Source of the DNA: an uncultured bacterium
Lineage (GTDB): Bacteria > Zixibacteria > MSB-5A5 > SM1-73
NCBI GenBank assembly: GCA_965369445.1
Contig: CBDUQU010000001.1
Location: forward strand, 1,614-65,613
DNA: 64,000 bases
Reading direction: 5' to 3'
Below the pieces are notes generated by a model. It did no database searches. It worked only from the letters and a program-made list of their open reading frames with translations, and had not been told where the DNA came from. Both the position numbers and the translations under genes were made by a program. Every line of letters begins with the position of its first letter. Position 1 is the first letter of the stretch. Of this stretch, positions 3,343 through 52,714 are shown one piece after another.

Positions 3343-3866
3343 TCGTGCCCTCCTTTCGAAATCGTATTTTCACGAGATTGCGAGTAAACAAAGTAATTGA
3401 TATCACCACGCGTCCACTCTTTTTCTCGCACCATTCCCATCTTCTCCGCCACCCGCATGGAGGCCGGATTGTCAGGCCGGATGAGACTGATGACCCGCTG
3501 CAGACGGAGCTGATGAAACGCATAATCGCGCACGGCGCTCGCCGCCTCGGTCGCAAGGCCGCGGCCCCAGTATGAGCTGAGGAAATCGTATCCGATCTCG
3601 ACCTCGGGCATCCCGTCAACTTCCATATGCTCCAGGCCGCAGTCACCCACCAGCTCGCCGCTCTCCTTAAGGATGACGGAGAACAGACCGTACCCGTATC
3701 GATCCTGGTGGTCAAGGTTGCGCCGTATCCATTTTTCCATCTTCGTGCGATCGAACAGACCCCCCCCGAACGATTCCATGACCTTAGGGTCGGAGAAGAT
3801 CAGAAGCAAATCGTCCAGATCGTCGATGGTCATCTTCCGCAGAATGAGTCGCTTGGTTTCGATCAT
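3339..3866 (-). CDS. GNAT family N-acetyltransferase (RimJ/RimL-like)
   Basis: 175 aa with the GNAT core (LVGDCGL...YDFLSSYWGRGLATEA, the Q/RxxGxG/A acetyl-CoA loop). 4-bp overlap with the downstream lipoprotein gene. Confidence 0.75.
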   Translation of the reverse strand: MIETKRLILRKMTIDDLDDLLLIFSDPKVMESFGGGLFDRTKMEKWIRRNLDHQDRYGYGLFSVILKESGELVGDCGLEHMEVDGMPEVEIGYDFLSSYWGRGLATEAASAVRDYAFHQLRLQRVISLIRPDNPASMRVAEKMGMVREKEWTRGDINYFVYSQSRENTISKGGHE

Positions 3867-4005: not shown

Positions 4006-5478
4006 CTACATCGATTCCAGCATCTGCGCAGCCTTATGCCTCATGAAGGCATAGTTGAGGCTGTTAAGAGCATTCCACCCCGCAGCCTTCTCACAAAGCT
4101 CCTTTGCTTTTTCCATGTCTTCCTTGCCCTGGAAGGCCAGCGCCATTCTATACCAGTTGTAAGGATTCTGCAGGCTGGCTTTTTGGAGTTCTTCAAGTGC
4201 CCGGCCGTACTCTTTTTCCTCCAGGGCAATCATGCCGGCCAGTTGGTGGGCCAGCTTAACCTGAAACGGGTTTCTCACCGCCTCGACCCGCTCACGATAT
4301 TCGTCGGCTTGGGCCTTGGCCGTCTCGAGATCTCCCTTCTTTAAAGCGGCGCGTGCAGCGTTGAAGAAATAGCCCCGTCTGAAATTGTCTTTCACCTCCT
4401 CAGAAAGATCAGATGCTTCGGCAACCTCCACTGCCTTCTCGTACTTAGCCTGAGCTTCATCAATCCTTTCAGCCTCAAGAAGAATGTTGCCCATCACGAT
4501 CAGATCTCCGGCCATTGCGGCAGCATCGTTGATCTTCTCTGCCAGGGCGTATGCCTTATCCTGTTCCTCTAACGCGGCATCACAATTCCCCTCGTCAACG
4601 TAAGAAACCGAGATGGCAAAGTGAGCCGCCCGGCGTTCGCCATCGTTGCGAGCCATGTCATACAACACCTGAAGCTGCTCCCTTGCCTCCTGGTGATTGT
4701 CCTTGAAGTTTGAGTTCGTGGCTATACCGATATGCGACGGAACGAAATTGGGGTCGGACGTCAGAGCTTTCTTGTACTGTTCTATGGACTCATCGTACCT
4801 ACCCATCTTCATGAGTAATTCGGCGTAGGAATCATAGGGATTGGGATCGTCCGGTATCAGTTCGATGTAGGTCCTAAAGGCTTTCTCCGCCTCGTCGAAG
4901 TTCTCCATGAATCTGTGGGCATAGCCAAGTTGATTATAGGGCTGCGAGAAGTCCGGATTGATACCGGTTGCCTTGTGGTATTCTCTTATGGCCAGTTCAT
5001 ACTCCTCCTGACCGAAGTAGTGGTTGCCCAGCAGATTGTGAGCCCGTTCGTCCTCTGGAAAAGTCTCCACCAGTTCCCTGTACAACTCTCTCTGCTTCAT
5101 CGCATAAGCATGAGCTCCCGCCTCTACCCCCAGAATCCACAATCGCTCTCCCTGGGAGACCTTGTCCGCTAATGCTCTTGCCTTATCCAGATTCGCCCAG
5201 AATCCTTTGGCGCTGGGGGTAACAAAGGACAGATTCAAATAGGCCATGGCGAAATCCGGATCTTCTGCGATGGCGTTCTCGAAGAACCGAATGGATTCCT
5301 GAAAGCGGAGCTTTTCCCAAAGATCACGCCCCTGCAAGTAGTGTTCACGCGCCTTTTCAGATTTGGTTGTGATGGGGATCTTGCCATCTTCTTTGGGTGC
5401 GGCGCAGCCGATCATCATGAGCAGAAGAGCACTCACAGCAAGCATCAAGATCCAACTCATCGCGCTATGCTTTTTCAT
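4006..5478 (-). CDS. TPR-repeat lipoprotein
   Basis: Signal peptide with lipobox (LLMMIGCAAP). The whole body is degenerate 34-aa TPR helices (Y/F..G.....A. periodicity). Confidence 0.7.
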   Translation of the reverse strand: MKKHSAMSWILMLAVSALLLMMIGCAAPKEDGKIPITTKSEKAREHYLQGRDLWEKLRFQESIRFFENAIAEDPDFAMAYLNLSFVTPSAKGFWANLDKARALADKVSQGERLWILGVEAGAHAYAMKQRELYRELVETFPEDERAHNLLGNHYFGQEEYELAIREYHKATGINPDFSQPYNQLGYAHRFMENFDEAEKAFRTYIELIPDDPNPYDSYAELLMKMGRYDESIEQYKKALTSDPNFVPSHIGIATNSNFKDNHQEAREQLQVLYDMARNDGERRAAHFAISVSYVDEGNCDAALEEQDKAYALAEKINDAAAMAGDLIVMGNILLEAERIDEAQAKYEKAVEVAEASDLSEEVKDNFRRGYFFNAARAALKKGDLETAKAQADEYRERVEAVRNPFQVKLAHQLAGMIALEEKEYGRALEELQKASLQNPYNWYRMALAFQGKEDMEKAKELCEKAAGWNALNSLNYAFMRHKAAQMLESM

Positions 5479-5513
5479 CGCCTACTCCTTTCTTGATTAA
5501 AGGGTTAAACGAA

Positions 5514-5834
5514 TCAGTCTATTCTCTCCACTTTGAAGATCACCGGCCTGAACCAGTCCGTACAACCGACGATCAGAGTGCCGCGCTGTTTCATCCCGGG
5601 CATGTTGCCACCGTATGCAAGAATCAGCAGGTCATAGCGGATATCTGCCCAGGCCCAGTTACAGAAACCCTCTGGTGCTTGGTAGTAACGATCCAGTATG
5701 AACTCCTGGCCGTCCTTGAAAAGCTCACAGGGTTTCATAGCCTTATTTTCATCGTCTAAGTACTCATCGATCAGATCCTGGTTGATGGTCCTCTTAAGTA
5801 CTGTGATCTTGCACTCAGGCATCTTGCTGGGCAT
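5514..5834 (-). CDS. small conserved hypothetical protein (possibly TIGR04076-like)
   Basis: Start trimmed to ATG at 5834, which has a strong AAGGAGGTG upstream. Product MPSKMPECKITVLKRT...CNWAWADIRYDLL...; the family name is recollection only. The track's longer N-terminus lacks an RBS. Confidence 0.4.
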   Translation of the reverse strand: MPSKMPECKITVLKRTINQDLIDEYLDDENKAMKPCELFKDGQEFILDRYYQAPEGFCNWAWADIRYDLLILAYGGNMPGMKQRGTLIVGCTDWFRPVIFKVERID

Positions 5835-6105
5835 CTCACCACCTCCTTTTTCCGGATTCTTGGAACCTACAGAGAACCTTCCTGCTGGAGGTTTATCCGG
5901 TTGATCATATATGTCCCACGGCCCAAGAGAAACTACTAACCTAAGTAACCAGCGCATAGAAGTTCGTGAGAATTATAACTCAAGAATGGAAGAAATCAAG
6001 AAAAAACGACGCGGATCAAATCACTTTTGCAGGTTAACCATCTTCCTCAAGGCCCGAGTATGCTCCGGCGTTGTCCCACAGCACCCCCCGATACCTCTGC
6101 TGCCG

Positions 6106-7501: not shown

Positions 7502-8416
7502 TCAAGATAATTCCCTGTCTTGAGGGGATCGCCTCTGCCGGTCAACAGTCCTCCTCAAAGCTCTAATATGCTCCGGAGTCGTCCCGCAGCAGCCCCCAAT
7601 GATTGACACGCCCAATGAGACAAGCTCTTTGGCTTTCTCCGCCATAAACTCAGGCGTCTCAGGCCAGGCAGGTCTATCGCCCCGCATTTCCGGAATACCT
7701 GCGTTGGATTGGATGATGATTGGGAGCTTGCTGTACTTCTTAAACTCTTTGGCAATCTCTATCATATTCTCAATGCCGTTGCCGCAATTCGAACCTATGA
7801 TATCGGCTCCTGCCTCTTCCAGCCCTCGCGCGGCCTCTTGGATGCTTGTGCCCATCACTGTGAAGAAACCTTTCGGCGTCAGGTCAAAGGTCATTGCCGC
7901 CATAACAGGAGTCGACGGTGAAACCGTCTTTGCCGCTCTGGTGGCGAGTGTTGCCTCCGTTAAATCGGTCATGGTCTCTATGGAGATAGCATCAACTCCG
8001 GCGCTGATGAGAGCCTTCATCTGCCTTTCAAAACTACTGTATATCTCCTCAGGCTCAGTGTCCCCATAGGGTTTTAAGAGCTTTCCACTCGGCCCGCAGG
8101 AAGCGGAGATGTAAGCACGATCCCCCACGACCTTTCTCACCGCCAGGACGGCATTTCTGTTTATCTTTTCTGTTTTGCCGTCCAACGAATGGAGCGCAAG
8201 CCGCAAAGGCGAAGCGCCGAAGGTATTGGTCTGGATTATGTCCGCTCCTGCTTCCAGATAGAGACGGGCGATTTCCTCGAGCACCTCGGGACGGGTGAGA
8301 TTAAAAGACTCCGGCGGCTCACCTGGCTTGAGACCGTGATCCATCAGCATAGTCCCCATGGCGCCGTCGGCGACCAGTATCTCGCCGTCTTTTAACCGCT
8401 CAAGCAGATTTTTCAT
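7502..8416 (-). CDS. homocysteine S-methyltransferase domain protein (MetH N-terminal Hcy-binding module, stand-alone)
   Basis: Starts MKNLLERLKDGEILVADGAMGTMLM. Cys ligands in ...SASCGP... and GGCCGTTPEHI are typical of the zinc site in Pfam S-methyl_trans. I took the ATG at 8416; the track's longer ORF uses an upstream GTG inside a repeat element. Confidence 0.75.
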   Translation of the reverse strand: MKNLLERLKDGEILVADGAMGTMLMDHGLKPGEPPESFNLTRPEVLEEIARLYLEAGADIIQTNTFGASPLRLALHSLDGKTEKINRNAVLAVRKVVGDRAYISASCGPSGKLLKPYGDTEPEEIYSSFERQMKALISAGVDAISIETMTDLTEATLATRAAKTVSPSTPVMAAMTFDLTPKGFFTVMGTSIQEAARGLEEAGADIIGSNCGNGIENMIEIAKEFKKYSKLPIIIQSNAGIPEMRGDRPAWPETPEFMAEKAKELVSLGVSIIGGCCGTTPEHIRALRRTVDRQRRSPQDRELS

Positions 8417-14391: not shown

Positions 14392-15870
14392 ATGAAGTAC
14401 AGTTCTTTAATTAGGAGTTTGTTTTTGCTGCTGTTTGTACTTATGCCCTTTTCCTTATATGCATCTGTCGATTTTCCTGAAACGCCGGCAGGAAATCGGG
14501 CAAAGGAGATACTGGAGCTCTTAAACGGAACCAGTTCACATTCTCCTGAAGACTATGTCAAAAATGACTATACGCCGAGTTTTAGGGACGCTTTCCCCAT
14601 GGCATCTCATGTAGCTATTTTCTCGACCACTCAGGGAATTTTCAACAAACTGCAACTTGTCGAAATTCCGGAATCTTCGCCTCACCGAATCACTGCCATT
14701 CTCAAGTCTGCTGCCCGTGAAGCTTATTTGAAACTCGAATTAGATGTGGAGCCCGAAGAACCGCATAGAATTGCGTCAATGGGAATCTCACCTGCCGGTA
14801 AACCTGCAAATGCTGAAGAGACAGAAAAAGAAGAAAAGGCAGGAGGTGAACCTCAAAAAAGCAGAGAACCCAAAGAGGTAGATTTAGATGACTTGCACAA
14901 TCAGCTTTCTGAAAAAGCTGAAAATAATGAGTTCTCGGGCGTCGTGCTGATCGCAAAAGATGGCAACAAGATTTTCCATGAGGCTTACGGATATGCTTCA
15001 AAAGAGTTTAAGGTAAAGAACGCTTTGGATACAAAATTCAACCTTGGCTCCATCAACAAGCTATTCACCTCAATCGGCATTACTCAGCTTATGGAAAAGG
15101 GAAAATTGTCCATCGATGACCCGATCGGGAAATATCTGGATATCTTTTCGCAGGAAATTGCCGGCAAGGTTACGGTAAAGCATTTATTGCAAATGCGGGC
15201 AGGCTGGGGGGATTATTGGGGCAATGAGTATTATCTTGCCCATCGGAATGAGCTTCGGAAGGTATCGGATTATATGGAGTTCATTAAGGACATTCCCCTT
15301 GATTTTGAACCCGGGACAAACTTCCAGCATTGTAATACGTGCTTTGAGGTGCTTGGAGCTTTAATCGAAGCAATAACCGGTATAGATTACTATGATTACG
15401 TAAAAGACAATATCTATAAACCAGCGGGAATGGAAAACACCGATTGCTATGACAAAGACGGCCCTGTTGAGAATATTGCTGTGGGATACACAAATATGAA
15501 TCCCGACGCACCCGGTGAAAACGAGTACAGATGGAATAACCTGTATATGATGCCTCCAAAGGGATCACCCACAGGAGGGGGTTTTTCCACTGTCGAGGAT
15601 CTGCTCAAGCTCGATATCGCTTTGAGAAACTTCAAACTGTTGAATCGTGACTATACTCACTATTTATCCCGGCAGTTTAACGGTTCGCCAAAGGATCCTT
15701 TTGAGCCTCCCGGCAGAGTCTCGCTTAGTGCAGGAGGAGCGCCGGGGGTAAGCGCAGTTTTTGCCCGCGATCTTGATTTCGGTTATACAATAATTGTGTT
15801 GTCCAATTACGACTATCCTGTCGCAATGGATGCGGCAAGCGAGATCATAGAAATGTATGGATTAGAATAG
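14392..15870 (+). CDS. serine hydrolase of the beta-lactamase/penicillin-binding fold (class C-like), secreted, with an N-terminal extension
   Basis: Signal peptide, an E/K-rich linker, then the SxxK active-site motif (FNLGSINKLF) and a YxN-like region. Start taken at MKYSSLIR. Confidence 0.7.
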   Translation: MKYSSLIRSLFLLLFVLMPFSLYASVDFPETPAGNRAKEILELLNGTSSHSPEDYVKNDYTPSFRDAFPMASHVAIFSTTQGIFNKLQLVEIPESSPHRITAILKSAAREAYLKLELDVEPEEPHRIASMGISPAGKPANAEETEKEEKAGGEPQKSREPKEVDLDDLHNQLSEKAENNEFSGVVLIAKDGNKIFHEAYGYASKEFKVKNALDTKFNLGSINKLFTSIGITQLMEKGKLSIDDPIGKYLDIFSQEIAGKVTVKHLLQMRAGWGDYWGNEYYLAHRNELRKVSDYMEFIKDIPLDFEPGTNFQHCNTCFEVLGALIEAITGIDYYDYVKDNIYKPAGMENTDCYDKDGPVENIAVGYTNMNPDAPGENEYRWNNLYMMPPKGSPTGGGFSTVEDLLKLDIALRNFKLLNRDYTHYLSRQFNGSPKDPFEPPGRVSLSAGGAPGVSAVFARDLDFGYTIIVLSNYDYPVAMDAASEIIEMYGLE

Positions 15871-15961
15871 AAGTCGAAGAGCTTCTGTGCCTGCCAGGTT
15901 CCTTGATCTGGTCCCGCATTTTGCGGGATCGGGTCGGGGGACCCGACGGGCACGCAACATT

Positions 15962-16153
15962 TCATATAGAATCCAGTTCTACATATGCATCTTCTTTGCC
16001 TTTTTCTCTATCTTTTCGTGCTTGCTTGAGATCTTCGATGGCCTTCTTATCAAGATCTAATCCTAACAGCTCTTCTATTTCTTTATACTCCTTCCAGGGA
16101 ATAATCACTTCGGTTGGCTTGCCTTTTTCATTTACCACAATTTTCTTGTGCAC
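15962..16153 (-). CDS. small Phd/YefM-like antitoxin-type protein
   Basis: 63 aa, KPTEVIIPWKEYKEIEELLG...AIEDLKQARKDREKGK, in the Phd/YefM pattern (beta-strand then EEY..LEE). Very low GC. Confidence 0.45.
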   Translation of the reverse strand: MHKKIVVNEKGKPTEVIIPWKEYKEIEELLGLDLDKKAIEDLKQARKDREKGKEDAYVELDSI

Positions 16154-16193
16154 CGTAACCGTAGCTTCACCTCTTTTCTTTTTAATTATACCT

Positions 16194-17013
16194 AACGTTT
16201 GAACTCAGCGGTTTAAAAGCATTAGCTTTTAATCCGCTGAAGCGAATTGTTATTTGGTTTCTTTGATATTCCTAGTTTTTTGCAAATCCATTTTTCATAT
16301 TTTTTATCAATTGAAATTATACATCTATCCCAATGATCTTTTTCATCAATTTCTAAAGCTTCGTCATATTTTCTGATAAAATCTGATATAGAAATGTTGT
16401 CTGCTAGTACTTTTGCTTTAGTGCGTACCTGTGATGGCAGTTCGCTAAAGCTAATTGTTGACTTTTCAAGAATTATTCGGAAATATATTTTCTCTGCCTC
16501 AGAAACATTTTGCAGATTGGCGGATAATCTTTCCTCTACGGAATAATATCGTTTAGGAAGTTCCTTTTCTAGCTTTGATGGCAATTCATCAATGTTTTTA
16601 TATCTTATTTGTACTAGACCTGATAAATTAGACGGAAGATGTTTTTGATAGCTCCCCTTTTTGGTTTCTCGAATAAGCAATATTACATTTAATTGCTTAG
16701 CCAGGGCATACCCTAGCTCGATGTGGACATTTCGATTTTGGGATTTTGTTTCGAAGACGCAAAAAGCGCTTCTGTCCATTTGTTTTATCAACTCTTCCCA
16801 TAGCCACTTACCTGCATCAACAAATGGGGTTATTTCCATATTCTGTTTTGCTAAAAATTGTTTTACTTTCTTGTATAGTTTTTGGCCGCGAGAGTTTTTT
16901 TTAAATTCATGTCCATAGAAACATTTATGGTAATCTTTTAAATTTGTCTTTTTTGGTGAAAGCATTTCTTGTTCCTTTCAATTTTATTCTCACACAACGC
17001 TTGAACTGAGCGG
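16194..17013. repeat. 18-bp imperfect direct repeats (AACGTTTGAACTCAGCGG at 16194-16211; AACGCTTGAACTGAGCGG at 16996-17013) bracketing the TIR/NDT-like gene
   Basis: Read directly; 16/18 identical and in the same orientation. Confidence 0.6.
16222..16965 (-). CDS. TIR-like / nucleoside 2-deoxyribosyltransferase-like domain protein with an uncharacterised C-terminal half
   Basis: 247 aa at about 33% GC. The N-terminal 120 aa follow the flavodoxin-like TIR/NDT pattern (FYGHEF...FVDAGKWLWEELIKQMDRSAFCVFETKS...NVHIELGYALAKQLNVILLI, with an ELGYA motif as in the NDT family). The C-terminal 120 aa have no recognisable family. Confidence 0.45.
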   Translation of the reverse strand: MLSPKKTNLKDYHKCFYGHEFKKNSRGQKLYKKVKQFLAKQNMEITPFVDAGKWLWEELIKQMDRSAFCVFETKSQNRNVHIELGYALAKQLNVILLIRETKKGSYQKHLPSNLSGLVQIRYKNIDELPSKLEKELPKRYYSVEERLSANLQNVSEAEKIYFRIILEKSTISFSELPSQVRTKAKVLADNISISDFIRKYDEALEIDEKDHWDRCIISIDKKYEKWICKKLGISKKPNNNSLQRIKS

Positions 17014-17230
17014 CGACGGGTGGCCCGGCCTGTTCATCAGGCCGGGTTTATCATCGTCCTCACTCGACAGACCAGCGTCAGGGGCACAGGGCCCCAGATC
17101 TACCACTTCGGCCGACCCCAGGAAATGGACCGACAATCAAATCTACAGTTGACCCTCCCTAATGTCAAGTTATTTTGAGCAGGTTTAGCGTCAGTATCGA
17201 CGAACTGGCGCTGGGATATGCCGACCTCAC

Positions 17231-17395
17231 CTAAGCCCCTTTCTTCATCATTGTTAGAAATGAAGACCGGAGCGTATCGCTCATAAGGGCCTTTTTCACC
17301 GGCGGCAGTTTCAGGAATCCGCCGATGAAGCCGCGCATGAACGAGTGAGTGATGCTCTGCGGAATTCCCTTAGGTGGGAAGGGGAAGGGTTTATA
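17231..17395 (-). pseudogene. 3' relic (last ~54 codons plus stop) of a paralog of the 4Fe-4S protein gene at 32232..33488
   Basis: About 85% nucleotide identity to 32235-32360. In-frame translation gives ...PQSITHSFMRGFIGGFLKLPPVKKALMSDTLRSSFLTMMKKGA*, against ...PQSITHSFMRGFIGGFLRLAPVKKALMSDVLRSSFLGMMNKGA* in the intact gene. There is no start codon; an in-frame TGA lies immediately upstream, at the edge of an 11-bp-stem hairpin. Confidence 0.6.
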
Positions 17396-17478
17396 TCAGA
17401 AGGGAACCAGAACCCTTCCCCTTGGTTTGGGGGGCACTTTTTTAACGCGTCTACTACTCCACTTGCTCAGGGCTCAGG

Positions 17479-18654
17479 TCACGATTCGACCCGCAGAACC
17501 CTGTCGGGAATCCTGACCCTCTCGGGCTTAGAACCTTCTTCCGGATGCTCAAAGATGGGCAAATACCGCACTGCCATAGCGAAGATGAAGAATCCGGTGG
17601 CTACCAGAGCCAGGGTGACGGCGATCTCCATCCATGACGGAAAGTAGTTGACCCCGGACGAAGCCACGAAACCGGTCGTGGACACGTTTAATCTGTTCAG
17701 CAAAAACCCGACGATGGTGCACACCGCCGCTATGTAAAGTCCCCTGGTGGAGAGCCTTATCTTTCGTATCGAGAGCAGGACGATGGGAACGATTATTCCT
17801 GCTAAGATCTCCAACCAGAAGAGCCCGGTCTCCATGCGGAGGAGGAAGAGTTCCGACCAAACACCTCGCATGAAGAAATCATAAATCTTCATAAGCAGGT
17901 AAATCACCAAAACCACCAGAAGGATTCTTCCAATGTCCGCCAGCACGTCCTGCTTCAGGCGGTGACCGAAAGCTCTAAAGCTCAGGTGTGATTCAAAAAT
18001 GACCATGGCGCATCCTGCCGCAATCGCGGAGACGTAGAACAGCAGAGGCAGAGACGCCGAGTACCAGAGCGTGTATAGCCTGTGAGGCACGATCAAGAAC
18101 AACGAACCCAAAGAGGACTGGTGCATGGTGGAAAGGACGACTCCCAGTATGACCAGGGGAACCGTTATCCTGCCTATCCATCTCTTGGGCCCGCTCCAGC
18201 CCAAACGTTCGAAGAGGTTCGGACTGAATTCGAAAAACAACACCCCGGTGTATAACATGACGCACATGGCTACCTCAAACAACGGGGAATGGAAGTTGCC
18301 CATAAAGAGAGGATTGTATAGCTTGTCCGGGCGTCCCACGTCAAAGAGAAGACCTACGATCACCAGAAGGTACCCCAAAAAAGCGGTTAAGATGGCGGGT
18401 TTCAGAACGGGATAGAACCGCTTAACGTGAAACACGTAAACTGCCGCCGCCAGGGTAAACCCGCCGGCGGCCAACCCCACTCCCGATATGACGTCGAAAC
18501 CAACCCACAGCCCCCAGGGAAACCTATCACTCAAATTAGTAGCTGCCCCCAGGCCGCCGGTGAAACGGACAATGGTCGCTATAAGGCCAGCCACCCAGGT
18601 CAGAAGCAGGACTACTTTCCAGAAAGTTATCTTGAACGGTAATTTGATACTCAC
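17479..18654 (-). CDS. NrfD/PsrC-family polytopic membrane subunit of a quinone-interacting redox complex
   Basis: 391 aa with 8-10 TM helices and no cofactor motifs. It sits immediately downstream of a 4Fe-4S NrfC/HybA-type partner. Confidence 0.65.
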   Translation of the reverse strand: MSIKLPFKITFWKVVLLLTWVAGLIATIVRFTGGLGAATNLSDRFPWGLWVGFDVISGVGLAAGGFTLAAAVYVFHVKRFYPVLKPAILTAFLGYLLVIVGLLFDVGRPDKLYNPLFMGNFHSPLFEVAMCVMLYTGVLFFEFSPNLFERLGWSGPKRWIGRITVPLVILGVVLSTMHQSSLGSLFLIVPHRLYTLWYSASLPLLFYVSAIAAGCAMVIFESHLSFRAFGHRLKQDVLADIGRILLVVLVIYLLMKIYDFFMRGVWSELFLLRMETGLFWLEILAGIIVPIVLLSIRKIRLSTRGLYIAAVCTIVGFLLNRLNVSTTGFVASSGVNYFPSWMEIAVTLALVATGFFIFAMAVRYLPIFEHPEEGSKPERVRIPDRVLRVES

Positions 18655-49977: not shown

Positions 49978-51003
49978 TCATAATAGGCTTTCCTGTGCCC
50001 CTTTCTCCCTGGTTATGCCCAAATGCTTGTATGCCAGCTCGGTGGCGGTTCTGCCCCGCGGGGTGCGATTCAAGAGACCCTCCTGAATCAGGAACGGCTC
50101 GTATACCTCCTCGATGGTCTCCCCCTCCTCACCTACGGCCACCGCCAGGGTGTTTATCCCCACCGGGCCGCCCTTGAACTTATGGATGATTACCTCCATT
50201 ATCTTCTTGTCCATGTCGTCTAAGCCCAGTTCGTCCACGTCCAGCATCAGCAAGGCGTCGTGGGCAACCTGCCGGTCTATCTTTCCCTTCGCCTTGACCT
50301 GGGCATAGTCTCTCACCCGGCGAAGAATTCGGTTGGCCACCCGGGGAGTGCCCCTGGATCTATTGGCGATCTCCCGGGCTCCCTCCTTGTCGATGCTGAC
50401 TTCTAATATCTTGGCCGATCTCAGAACGATCTTATACAGGTCCTCCGGCTGATAGAAATCCAGCCTCCCCACCACCCCGAATCTTGAGCGCAAAGGTGAG
50501 GTCAAAAGACCGGCCCTGGTGGTGGCTCCTACCAGGGTGAAGGGCTGCAGGTCGATTTTCACCGAGCGGGCAGATGGACCCTTCTCTATCATGATATCTA
50601 TCTTGAAGTCCTCCATGGCCGGATAGAGGTACTCCTCCACCACGTGGTTGAGCCGGTGAATCTCGTCAATGAACAAAACCTCCTTCTCACCTAAGTTGGT
50701 CAGAAGCCCGGCTAAGTCTGCCGGCCGATCCATCACCGGGCCGGAGGTAGACTTGATATTTGCATCCATCTCCCTGGCGATTATGTGGGCCAGCGTGGTC
50801 TTTCCCAACCCGGGAGGACCGCAAAATAAGACGTGATCCAAAGGCTCGCCTCTTTTCCTTGCTGCCTGGATGAAGATGCTCAGGTTCTCCTTGACCTTCT
50901 CCTGACCCACGAACTCGTCGAATTTCGTGGGTCTTAAGGTGACATCATATTCGAATTCATCTTCCAGCCTGTCCGGAACCGTGACCCTCTGTGGCAATGT
51001 CAA
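49978..51003 (-). CDS. ruvB: Holliday junction branch-migration ATPase
   Basis: Walker [12 protein letters not shown]; the AAA+ fold and a winged-helix C-terminus; conserved along the whole length. Confidence 0.95.
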
Positions 51004-51110
51004 CCTCTCCGTTTGTCAATCTAACTACGTTGAAGCTTTCCTCTCCGACAATTTCTTTTCATCGTCCCGCAGCGCAAATCAAAAAAAAGATGTCGCCTCA
51101 TCACTTCCTT

Positions 51111-51713
51111 TCACTTGGCATATTTCAACACCCTTTTTATCAACTCCTCCACAGGCAAAGTTTCCTTCGTCTCTTCAGTTACCTTGTCCAGCGCCCTCCT
51201 GGCATCAACTTTGGTGTAGCCGAGTGAGATCAGGGCCAAAGCTGCCTCGTCCACCGCCGGAGTTAATATGGCCTCTTCTTCCCTCAGATCCTTTCTCTCA
51301 CCTAAATCCACCTTGCTCAGTTTCTCCTTTAATTCCACGATCAACCGTTGGGCCTTTTTCTTGCCTACACCGGAGATGGCGGTCAAAACATCTAAATCCT
51401 CCTGAAGAACAGATCTCTGAAACTCTTGCACTGAAATGCAGGAAAGAATGCTTAAAGCCATTCTCGGTCCTACTCCATTCACCCCGATCAATAACTCAAA
51501 AAGTTCTTTTTCCGGCTTGGTGGAGAACCCATAAAGCTTAAGCTCATCCTCCCGCACGTGTTGATAGGTCAGAATCTTAACCATCTGGCCAGTCTCAACT
51601 AAACTACCGTAAGTTGAGACCGGGATGTTTACCGCGTACCCCACCCCGTTAACCTCCAAGATCAAGAGGGTAGGGTTTTTCTCAATTAGTTTCCCTTCCA
51701 GATAGGCGATCAA
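51111..51713 (-). CDS. ruvA: Holliday junction DNA-binding protein
   Basis: MIAYLEGKL...NGVGYAVNIP...LIGVNGVGPRMALSIL (tandem HhH motifs). Confidence 0.9.
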   Translation of the reverse strand: MIAYLEGKLIEKNPTLLILEVNGVGYAVNIPVSTYGSLVETGQMVKILTYQHVREDELKLYGFSTKPEKELFELLIGVNGVGPRMALSILSCISVQEFQRSVLQEDLDVLTAISGVGKKKAQRLIVELKEKLSKVDLGERKDLREEEAILTPAVDEAALALISLGYTKVDARRALDKVTEETKETLPVEELIKRVLKYAK

Positions 51714-52189
51714 TTTTCTGTCCTTAAATATCTTCTTTTCGTTTCAGAATTCCAAGATTAAGCAATTCAAACTGAAAAATTGATTTTTTGCTTACCAGAA
51801 CCTAACTTAAGTTAGGTTCTGGTACTACAACTTTAGGTTCTTCTCCAATTCAGTTGTCCGAATTTGGATCCATAGGACTAAAATTCTTTATAAGGAAAAG
51901 GTTCTTTTCGACTTAATGAAACTGACATCTCAAAGACCTCACCCCCTATCCCCCTCTCCATAAAATGGAGAGGGGGAACAAAGGGGGAGAGGTAAAAGAA
52001 AGCCTGTGGTTTTTTTAGTGGAAATAATATGACCTTGTGCATTAGCAACTCTTTTGGAGAAGACCTAAATTTTATAAACCGTTCAATGATAGCCACTTAT
52101 TTAGACACAAGTCAAAAAATCAGAAGAGTGTTGTCGCTACCGAATTCAAGATTTGACGTTTAACGGTTTTTGACCAAGCATAAAACATA

Positions 52190-52714
52190 TCAATCAGCAG
52201 ACACTCTGGTAGACATTATGTAATTACGTCTGATTCTCTGAGCATGACACAAGGCTACGGCCAGAGCGTCCGCGGCATCCAGCGGCTGGGGCAGCTCTTT
52301 CAATCTTAAGAGCTTCTTCACCATGAACTGCACCTGGAACTTGGATGCATTTCCGGTACCCACGACGGCGGACTTAACCTCCTTGGGAGAATACTCACCT
52401 ATGGGAAGGCCGGATTTGGAAGCGGCCAGAATGGCCACGCCCCGCGCCTGTCCCATTATCAATGCCGACCTTGCATTCTTGCTGTAGAAGGCCTGCTCGA
52501 TGGCAAACTGTTGGGGGCAATGGTCCTCTATTACTTTGAGCAGCCCTTCGAAAATCTCCTTTAGCTTCTCCGGGAGCGTGCTGTGAGTACCAGGCTCGAT
52601 GACCCCGCTTTCTATCAGGTCATTCTTGTCGCCATTCGAATTTATCAAACCGTACCCGGTGACTTTGCTGCCCGGATCCACGCCCAAGATTGTCACTCCG
52701 TCTTCTCTTCTCAT
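52190..52714 (-). CDS. ruvC: crossover junction endodeoxyribonuclease
   Basis: ILGVDPGSKVTGYGL N-terminus and the RNase H-like fold of RuvC. Confidence 0.9.
   Translation of the reverse strand: MRREDGVTILGVDPGSKVTGYGLINSNGDKNDLIESGVIEPGTHSTLPEKLKEIFEGLLKVIEDHCPQQFAIEQAFYSKNARSALIMGQARGVAILAASKSGLPIGEYSPKEVKSAVVGTGNASKFQVQFMVKKLLRLKELPQPLDAADALAVALCHAQRIRRNYIMSTRVSAD

Follow-up and report, generated by a model that had tools for sequence, protein, structure and literature searches.

An AT-rich island of about 1 kb follows the nrfD operon in a metagenome-assembled genome of Candidatus Zixiibacteriota: what kind of element is it? We explored this island and its two genes within a stretch of 64,000 nucleotides from contig CBDUQU010000001.1 (the window, meaning the whole stretch that was analysed). 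The original prediction had taken the genes, one for a protein of 247 amino acids (aa) resembling TIR domains and nucleoside 2-deoxyribosyltransferases (NDTs) and the other for a 63-aa Phd/YefM-like protein, as a horizontally acquired toxin–antitoxin (TA) or defence pair. Our findings support another model, which we regard as likely overall: a remnant integron cassette array with a TIR-like plus winged-helix cassette and an orphan relB. The island would be the residue of a chromosomal integron cassette array, in which a complete, promoterless cassette of 802 bp with its own attC encodes the two-domain protein and is followed by the front half of a relB-parE TA cassette that has lost parE and its attC; the two genes would be independent mobile units joined by cassette shuffling.

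The compositional anomaly that first drew attention to the island stands out clearly. The block 15959-17015 (1,057 bp) has a GC content of 0.342, against 0.522 +/- 0.031 in all other windows of 1,057 bp (z = -5.8); it is the GC minimum of the 64 kb, and its tetranucleotide distance deviates as well (z = 9.3). It coincides with the single block that DNA alignment finds common to the window (17015..15959) and to a related locus, L001, at about 92% nucleotide identity and flanked on both sides by unrelated sequence. L001 is an 81-kb metagenomic contig of an unrelated genome, with a TonB receptor, an M4 peptidase with a Por secretion tail and purS/purQ in its flanks, and the proposed horizontal acquisition is borne out by this shared block. 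The limits defined by homology, 15959 and 17015, lie 4 nt and 25 nt from those first given (15955 and 16990); the GC step on the hydrolase side is less sharp than first stated, since the neighbouring beta-lactamase-family hydrolase gene is itself GC-poor (0.43-0.45 vs. 0.52). Both minus-strand open reading frames (ORFs), of 247 and 63 aa, exist as described. Read in the direction of the genes, the island and its upstream edge comprise:

17140..17176, minus strand: predicted platform promoter region (TTGACA, 17 nt, TAGATT at 17168->17140; 10/12 matches)
16992..17015, minus strand: 3' half of an attC (L' box, spacer and R' box, CGCCGCTCAGTTCAAGC GTTGTGT), with the crossover G|TT between 16998 and 16997
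16196..16997, minus strand: cassette 1, 802 bp, from the TT of one R' box to the G of the next, holding the TIR/NDT-like plus winged-helix gene and its attC
16222..16965, minus strand: 247-aa ORF, with N-domain aa 1-135 (nt 16561-16965) and C-domain aa 136-237 (nt 16255-16560)
16190..16255, minus strand: complete attC, 66 nt, with R'' AAATAAC (16255->16249), spacer, L''/stem-loop/L', spacer and R' GTTAGGT (16196->16190)
15959..16195, minus strand: truncated cassette 2 with the relB-like gene only
15962..16153, minus strand: 63-aa relB-like ORF with a GTG start

The 34-nt hairpin noticed at the outset between the two genes is real; it forms the core (16205-16240; 16-nt arms 16205-16220 and 16225-16240, 94% complementary; DNA fold z-score = -5.5) of the 66-nt attC, and the 247-aa ORF runs into its loop. 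On the coding strand the site reads AAATAAC, a 6-nt spacer, CTT-C-AGCGG-A-TTAAAAGC, the loop, GCTTTTAA-A-CCGCT-GAG, a 6-nt spacer and GTTAGGT. Set against the known anatomy and consensus of attC sites (R'' RYYYAAC and R' GTTRRRY; PMC5027507), R' matches at 7/7 positions and R'' at 5/7 with the AAC triplet intact. An alignment of eight sites beside homologs of the large gene in four other loci yields a consensus fold with an AAC/GTT R-box helix, unpaired spacers of 6 nt, an L-box stem and a variable loop, and compensatory changes occur in 8/17 pairs. In this fold 90.4% of cells pair, against 23-48% when the partners are slid by 1-3 columns, and none of 500 shuffles reaches the observed covariation. 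On its 5' arm the L-box stem has two unpaired bases, mostly C and A, which correspond to G and T on the bottom strand, the recombinogenic one; their distance of 7 positions equals that of G16/T23 in attC-aadA7. The window site has suffered two 1-nt deletions in or next to it. The first, between 16262 and 16263 relative to L001, makes the ORF skip its usual stop in R'' (the TAA in ATAAC), so that the last 10 codons are read-through into the attC loop and the frameshift touches only the non-conserved tail; the second lies in the stem and leaves an A.A mismatch in place of the second extrahelical base.

A covariance model built from those eight sites (R1) finds one complete site in the 64-kb window, 16189-16256 on the minus strand (49.7 bits, E 4e-11). 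In the other loci it places sites directly after the stop codon of the homologs (L001, L004, L008, L010, and L011) and between neighbouring genes, and it also recovers a site on which it was not trained, downstream of parE in L001 (25.7 bits). R1 is narrow: it misses the degenerate site after the parE of L013 and longer attC-like sites near the divergent homologs in L012, L099, L100, and L102, which were read by eye (e.g. GCCTAAC...GTTATGC in L102), and the longer sites of divergent homologs (36-46% identity) fall outside its scoring reach. It replaced an earlier regex-plus-RNAfold scan for AAC...GTT hairpins, too permissive with 91 hits in the window. In Rfam, no family matches the hairpin or its flanks across 15700-17500.

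The cassette boundaries follow from repeats. On the coding strand each gene is closely preceded by a copy of a 39-nt direct repeat, D1 (CCGCTSAGTTCAARC GTT....), the two copies being 72% identical and 802 bp apart; the second is the half site 16992-17015, which R1 does not detect as a full site and whose sequence recurs unchanged as the 3' half of the complete attC that precedes the L001 homolog. The repeat spacing, the GTTRRRY-type core boundaries and an equivalent unit in L001 together delimit cassette 1. In L001 a 152-aa gene comes first, then the TIR-like gene, then the relB-like gene plus parE and last a 102-aa gene, with a hairpin site in each of the three gaps.

The small gene belongs to a different unit. 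That it encodes an antitoxin was correctly foreseen, yet the family is RelB-like (PF18506, 28.6 bits, cut-off 27), with the Phd/YefM models (PF02604, TIGR01552) below threshold, some just and some well. The protein is 97% identical to the RelB of L001 over 66 codons counted from 16162, and 88-97% identical to those of L001, L013, and L032. In all three of these loci, the only others with relB, the gene is followed by parE in an ATGA overlap; in L001 the overlap is 4 nt and the toxin matches PF05016 with 26.9 bits (cut-off 23). In the window the homology extends 4 nt past the relB stop, to ...TCTATATGAAAT|, breaking off within the start region of parE; tblastn finds no ParE, and no RelE/ParE/Doc toxin is present. 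The lack of a RelE, YoeB or Doc partner that had been noticed is accordingly confirmed, and it is explained by a deletion in this genome, given that parE follows relB in the three other loci. The parE toxin and its attC have been deleted, leaving relB an orphan antitoxin. The ancestral ATG of relB (16162-16160) persists in L001, L013, and L032 and has become ACG in the window, where the GTG at 16153, three codons downstream and 14 nt from a AGAGGTGA Shine-Dalgarno, is the sole remaining in-frame start; the orphan may be poorly translated. Its ratio of nonsynonymous to synonymous substitution rates (dN/dS), 0.08-0.20 against the other copies, indicates purifying selection.

The closest relative, L013, is 95% identical in nucleotides through the nrfD operon; its homology to the window reaches 17140 and then jumps to 16202..15959, that is, to a relB segment without the TIR-like cassette. 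There the sequence runs from a TTGACA-17-TAAATT promoter through TTATACGGAAACCATATAATCAATAG|TTGGGTATGATT... to relB (with ATG), an intact parE of 89 aa and an attC-like site, GCCTAAC...ATTAGGC. Another close relative, L014, has no cassettes at this spot. With relB-parE alone in L013 and nothing in L014, the position behaves as a variable cassette site, of which the window holds a version eroded at both ends. The stretch 17140-17176 is the last held in common with the closest relatives before the array; AAAATAACTTGACATT..TCAACTGTA(G/A)ATT is kept at the equivalent place in L013 and L032, just upstream of the attI-like site, and probably acts as a promoter.

The relB-parE unit starts at an identical G|TT, whether after an attC (L001 and the window) or after an attI-like GGAAACCRTATAATCAATAG|TT (L013 and L032), and this conserved sequence, in the form GGAAACCRTATAATCARTAG|TT, precedes unrelated genes in L001, L015, and L016. 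An attI site is defined operationally by such behaviour, in which differing units join a constant site at a single nucleotide, and on that ground we call this sequence attI-like. Two integrase remnants turned up in a tblastn search of the window and 92 loci with an IntI1 query: in L032 the catalytic C-terminus, 80% identical to residues 296-330 of IntI1, and in L001 the last ~21 integrase codons (GFYTHILNQGGKRVKSPIDSL*). The gene is truncated in both. Each remnant is oriented like the cassettes and closely followed by two palindromes of 18-19 bp and a G|TT junction; the palindromes read TTATAYGGAAACCRTATAA in L001 and L013 and TTTATRCAGACTGTATAA in the second L032 platform, with the TTGACA promoter between them. 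With this layout the L001 and L032 sites are decayed integron platforms:

L001 5223-5460, L032 1040-1330, and L013 7480-7565, co-oriented with the cassettes: attI-like platform with integrase 3' remnant (L001 and L032), palindromes, promoter and G|TT

Some further repeats and genes accompany these platforms. A small palindromic repeat, TGTCAGGAGCTACTCCTGACA, occurs at the array end in L001 (~7678-7700) and flanks the relB-parE unit of L032 on either side (~45-65 and ~995-1015), directly adjoining the truncated integrase remnant there; possibly a REP- or MITE-like element, it may have taken part in the rearrangements. Upstream of the cassette region of L001 lie three GGTTGAAAATCCCGCC(N)GGCGG-type hairpin repeats (3690-3830) and CCCGCC...GGCGGG hairpins (4950-5110). 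The first L001 cassette (5463-5921) encodes the 152-aa protein, which matches the phage-related PHROG 29029 of unknown function (E 7e-15) and has no Pfam or PADLOC match.

On either side of the shared block, the window carries two features of its own:

17016..17139, minus strand: unique GC-rich DNA of ~125 bp, without homology to L013 or L001, containing a strong hairpin (17024-17046)
15887..15953, no strand: GC-rich imperfect inverted repeat I1, with 32-nt arms that are 72% complementary, between the hydrolase gene and the island

The first occupies the place of the attI-like site of L013 and L032 and folds as a long, degenerate attC-like hairpin with GAC for AAC at R''; it may represent the 3' end of an upstream cassette that has been lost. 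The second lies outside the transferred block and is therefore host DNA. It is possibly the hydrolase terminator, as the first reading had it, even though no intrinsic terminator was called because a T-run is absent. As an attC it was ruled out: its cores are wrongly oriented and it lies outside the block in common with L001. On this side the hydrolase gene (14400-15900) and the S41 peptidase gene do not adjoin nrfD in the closest relatives, L013 and L014, and the entire 12.7-16 kb segment may be accessory DNA. These relatives are syntenic with the window on the nrfD side only; consequently the exact history of insertion and deletion is not reconstructable, and the search for an empty site was partly successful. 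Elsewhere in the window, the second-lowest GC content, about 0.42-0.44 over 1 kb, is at ~51000-52300.

Several points weigh against a cassette array. By the narrow model R1 the window has only one complete attC, besides the 3' half site, and the CALIN definition of IntegronFinder asks for at least two attC sites with no intI nearby. It has neither an adjacent intI nor an attI at the array head, as a complete integron would: a tyrosine-recombinase motif screen, a Pfam scan of ten integrase-sized ORFs, and tblastn with IntI1 found no integrase in the 64 kb, and the attI-like sequence of L001, L013, and L032 is not found in the window at up to 3 mismatches. At neither end does the island meet host DNA in a canonical G|TT crossover, which means that simple IntI events do not account for the last rearrangements; an IntI insertion at a secondary GTT, considered for the left junction (ATGAAAT|GTTGCGT), was rejected, the donor in L001, L013, and L032 having no G|TT there. 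Moreover, the L001_mid training site of R1 is near-identical to the window site, whose score is therefore not independent. Cassette mobility at this locus is historical. Independent support for the attC comes from its structure and covariation, from the untrained hit and from the junction logic. Taken together, independent cassettes with a decayed integron and an orphan relB remain, in our view, a very probable architecture.

What, then, does the large gene encode? The TIR/NDT-like N-terminus that had been recognised by eye, with a Glu at position 83 (16717-16719; ctc on the plus strand, GAG on the minus, within HIELGYA), finds support at several levels. Scanned alone, the N-half matches PF10137 (CAP12/PycTIR TIR) over residues 28-123 with 26.3 bits (cut-off 24.7); the NDT family PF05014 scores 15.5-17.3 bits, below its cut-off of 28.8. 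The structural comparison proposed at the outset also agrees: in an AlphaFold model (mean pLDDT 82, pTM 0.78) the N-domain is flavodoxin-like, and Foldseek against the PDB returns NDT-type enzymes, namely DNPH1/Rcl and the CMP N-glycosidases MilB/BcmB, with a TM-score to the target of 0.65-0.74. The model thus shows a flavodoxin-type TIR/NDT-like N-glycosidase fold, and fold alone does not separate TIR from NDT. Among 70 distant relatives retrieved with a family profile, 43 match PF10137 (E<=0.001), 20 NDT and 6 TIR_2; the PADLOC model of the CBASS TIR effector is matched by 46/70, others matching PycTIR and PDC-S35, and the 247-aa protein itself has weak TIR-effector, PycTIR and PDC-S35 matches. 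One residue, Glu83, is invariant in all 70 of these relatives and in 21/21 family members, and aligns with the Glu motif of BcmB, NDT and PycTIR; likewise, the LPS(D/N)LSGL..Y of the family aligns with PycTIR LPSDAAGL..Y. The sequence evidence leans toward the PF10137 branch. The C-domain (136-237) is a winged helix by fold search and has no family match.

The family is tiny, with 21 clusters among 5.8 billion, all of 234-271 aa, and ~12 clusters at 50% identity among 1.84 billion representatives; viral contigs yielded no relatives, and PHROG matches are weak. The nearest relative outside this genome is that of L001 (6001-6711), a 237-aa allele with 81% aa identity. Wherever enough flanking DNA is available, the homolog is one of a series of small genes on the same strand, mostly unknown and with attC-like sites between them; its neighbours differ between loci and include a GNAT acetyltransferase, a BrnT/BrnA TA pair, an HNH protein with weak defence-nuclease matches, and unknowns. 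In the subclade of L004, L010, and L011 the cassette starts at GTTAGGGATAATC and a 181-aa gene, 85% conserved between loci, lies 27 nt upstream of the TIR-like gene:

L004 4143-5440, L010 568-1866, and L011 24-1130: two-gene cassette with the 181-aa gene and the TIR-like gene

The 181-aa protein has no Pfam, PADLOC or PHROG match and may be a partner subunit, either sensor or immunity. A universal upstream partner was excluded, the upstream proteins (181, 239, 112, and 152 aa) being mutually unrelated except for the 181-aa one within its subclade.

Beyond the observed cassette architecture, separateness of the units, loss of parE, domain folds and conserved Glu, we infer a function for the large protein from its family membership, the Glu, the analogy with the domains of the retron-Eco1 effector, the defence-rich cassette reservoir and the evolutionary pattern described below. 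Both genes would be transcribed from the platform promoter (17140-17168). The winged helix would bind nucleic acid or another trigger, binding would make the TIR-like domain oligomerise, and the ensuing NAD(P)+ cleavage, dependent on Glu83, would arrest growth of the infected cell. The result would be a streamlined one-protein defence cassette, akin to PycTIR/Cap12 and to the NDT plus winged helix-turn-helix effector of retron-Eco1. We put forward such a winged-helix-activated N-glycosidase effector, with a role in defence or abortive infection, tentatively, at something short of an even chance; NAD(P)+ is a more likely substrate than nucleotide monophosphates. Its fuller form is speculative and rather unlikely: a stand-alone immune protein whose winged helix senses phage (possibly modified) nucleic acid and activates an NAD(P)+ or nucleotide glycosidase, amounting to a retron-Eco1-type effector without a retron, and spread among uncultivated phyla such as Zixibacteria by integrons of an undescribed type with a co-oriented integrase and a palindromic attI.

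A number of results pull the other way. The Pfam check that had been suggested is passed by the N-half; the whole protein, at 23.7 bits, falls just under the PF10137 cut-off, and the C-half, as said, matches nothing. PADLOC gives no full-length system match for the protein, and its top structural matches are nucleotide N-glycosidases (MilB and DNPH1), not NADases. As to whether homologs sit in defence islands, a check also suggested at the outset, the neighbouring cassettes are not known defence genes. The 181-aa partner is absent from the window and L001, so the TIR-like protein may not work alone; finally, the 3' frameshift and a dN/dS near 1 would also fit early decay.

Foremost among the other explanations is an enzyme of the DNPH1/MilB/NDT type, that is, a nucleotide N-glycosidase rather than an NADase, which would cleave (deoxy)nucleoside monophosphates, possibly of the modified phage type (hydroxymethyl pyrimidine), with the winged helix targeting or regulating it. 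The structural matches just mentioned speak for it and the position of the sequence toward PF10137 speaks for an NADase; we consider it unlikely.

A decaying passenger without current function, its remaining genes drifting, is less easily reconciled with the pattern of substitution. Between the window and L001 the TIR-like gene has a dN/dS of 1.31 (48.5 nonsynonymous and 9.5 synonymous differences), against 0.14-0.18 in deeper comparisons, and the C-domain alone reaches 4.4, with few synonymous sites; lineage-specific changes number 25 in the window and 12 in L001. Such values would suit decay, as would the 1-nt deletions at the ORF 3' end and in the attC stem, the lost relB start, the lost parE and the lack of an integrase or attI in the window. 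Yet all 234 conserved codons of the ORF are intact, the promoter is conserved, and none of the 43 aa differences between window and L001 falls in any of the 43 columns that do not vary among the other 19 members, where 7.9 would be expected (P = 5.6e-5). On these comparisons the catalytic core is conserved and variable positions turn over fast, a pattern compatible with diversifying selection on a conflict gene and also with relaxed constraint on non-essential positions. We regard decay as improbable.

A novel two-gene TA or defence cassette, in which a TIR/NDT-like toxin is held by a dedicated 63-aa antitoxin, was the starting point of this work, and it fares much worse. The genes are indeed adjacent on one strand, 68 nt apart in a single AT-rich block, and the adjacency recurs in L001. 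Nevertheless, an attC separates them and relB overlaps parE, with which it belongs; L013 and L032 have relB-parE without the TIR-like gene, and the homologs in L004, L008, L010, and L012 occur without relB, beside GNAT, BrnT/BrnA, and unknowns. The only loci with the adjacency, the window and L001, are each other's closest relatives and owe it to descent, and the window relB carries a mutated start codon. Type II TA pairing of the two genes is thus largely refuted by context, and we hold it to be very improbable. A response-regulator-type transcription factor rather than an enzyme hardly deserves credence: the flavodoxin-like plus winged-helix layout is that of OmpR/FixJ, and FixJ, DivK, and PhoB-type receivers appear among the fold matches (rank 44 in one search; 39, 45, and 58 in another), but Pfam Response_reg does not match where PF10137, NDT and TIR do, the invariant residue is the TIR/NDT Glu in NxNVxxELG and not the Asp pocket of receivers, and the distant relatives are TIR proteins of CBASS, Pycsar or PDC-S35 type.

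Returning to the remnant cassette array, the locus illustrates how cassette shuffling and deletion can produce the semblance of an orphan antitoxin beside an odd toxin, and how attC boundaries and related loci reveal it. It adds a rare TIR-like plus winged-helix family (about 21 sequences) to the integron cassette pool, recently shown to be a reservoir of compact anti-phage systems and TA modules (bioRxiv 10.1101/2024.07.02.601686), and it is evidence of integron-type cassette platforms in Zixibacteria, whose integrase remnants run in the direction of the array. The protein family is rare and uncharacterised, and the literature searched describes no stand-alone TIR-like plus winged-helix defence protein; the kinds of element involved (integrase-less cassettes, a TA cassette and a TIR/NDT-type effector) are already known. 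The large gene alone is a plausible candidate for a compact defence cassette. If it did encode a single-polypeptide nucleic-acid-sensing NADase, it would offer a minimal model for the switching on of TIR/NDT effectors.

How do these elements compare with known systems? Integron cassettes lacking an integrase are a known kind of element (PMC4889954). Like those arrays, the window has a promoterless ORF followed by an attC with R''/R', unpaired spacers, extrahelical bases and a variable loop, and it shares with them the shuffling of units between genomes, exact G|TT joins, a TA cassette in the array and no integrase nearby. It differs in having one complete attC and a half site, ends eroded by non-canonical deletions, and a Zixibacteria host; the related loci differ further in their integrase remnant co-oriented with the cassettes and their attI-like site with 19-bp palindromes. 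The units of L001, L013, and L032 match the RelB/ParE cassettes of chromosomal integrons (PF18506 plus PF05016, 4-nt overlap, one cassette, one attC), whereas the window version is without the toxin gene and attC, and its antitoxin start is mutated.

As for the large protein, DNPH1/Rcl, MilB/BcmB, and the NDTs act in nucleotide metabolism or antibiotic biosynthesis and lack a winged helix; they are 11-20% identical to it, and it falls below the Pfam NDT cut-off. PycTIR and Cap12 resemble it in the sequence family of the N-domain, the NxNVxxELG and LPSDxxG..Y motifs, the catalytic-type Glu and the layout of sensor plus TIR. In PycTIR, ligand-driven oligomerisation switches on NADase activity (PMC11224242). 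Unlike these proteins, the present one has a winged-helix sensor in place of a cyclic nucleotide monophosphate-binding or SAVED domain, places TIR first (the order being reversed), is smaller and has no adjacent cyclase gene. From the retron-Eco1 effector (PDB 7v9x and 8QBM) it differs in showing no detectable sequence similarity (none to 7v9x) and in being a solo integron cassette; no reverse transcriptase was found among the neighbours in any locus and no msr/msd RNA near the gene, in line with the empty Rfam scan. In architecture, nonetheless, the two agree. The effector has an NDT-like domain in the N-lobe followed by a winged helix-turn-helix and contacts multicopy single-stranded DNA (msDNA), through the NDT-like lobe according to a preprint (10.1101/2023.08.16.553469), and it hydrolyses NAD(P)+ in phage defence (PMC12673091). 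The same order of NDT-like domain and winged helix-turn-helix is recovered here by fold searches of both domains.

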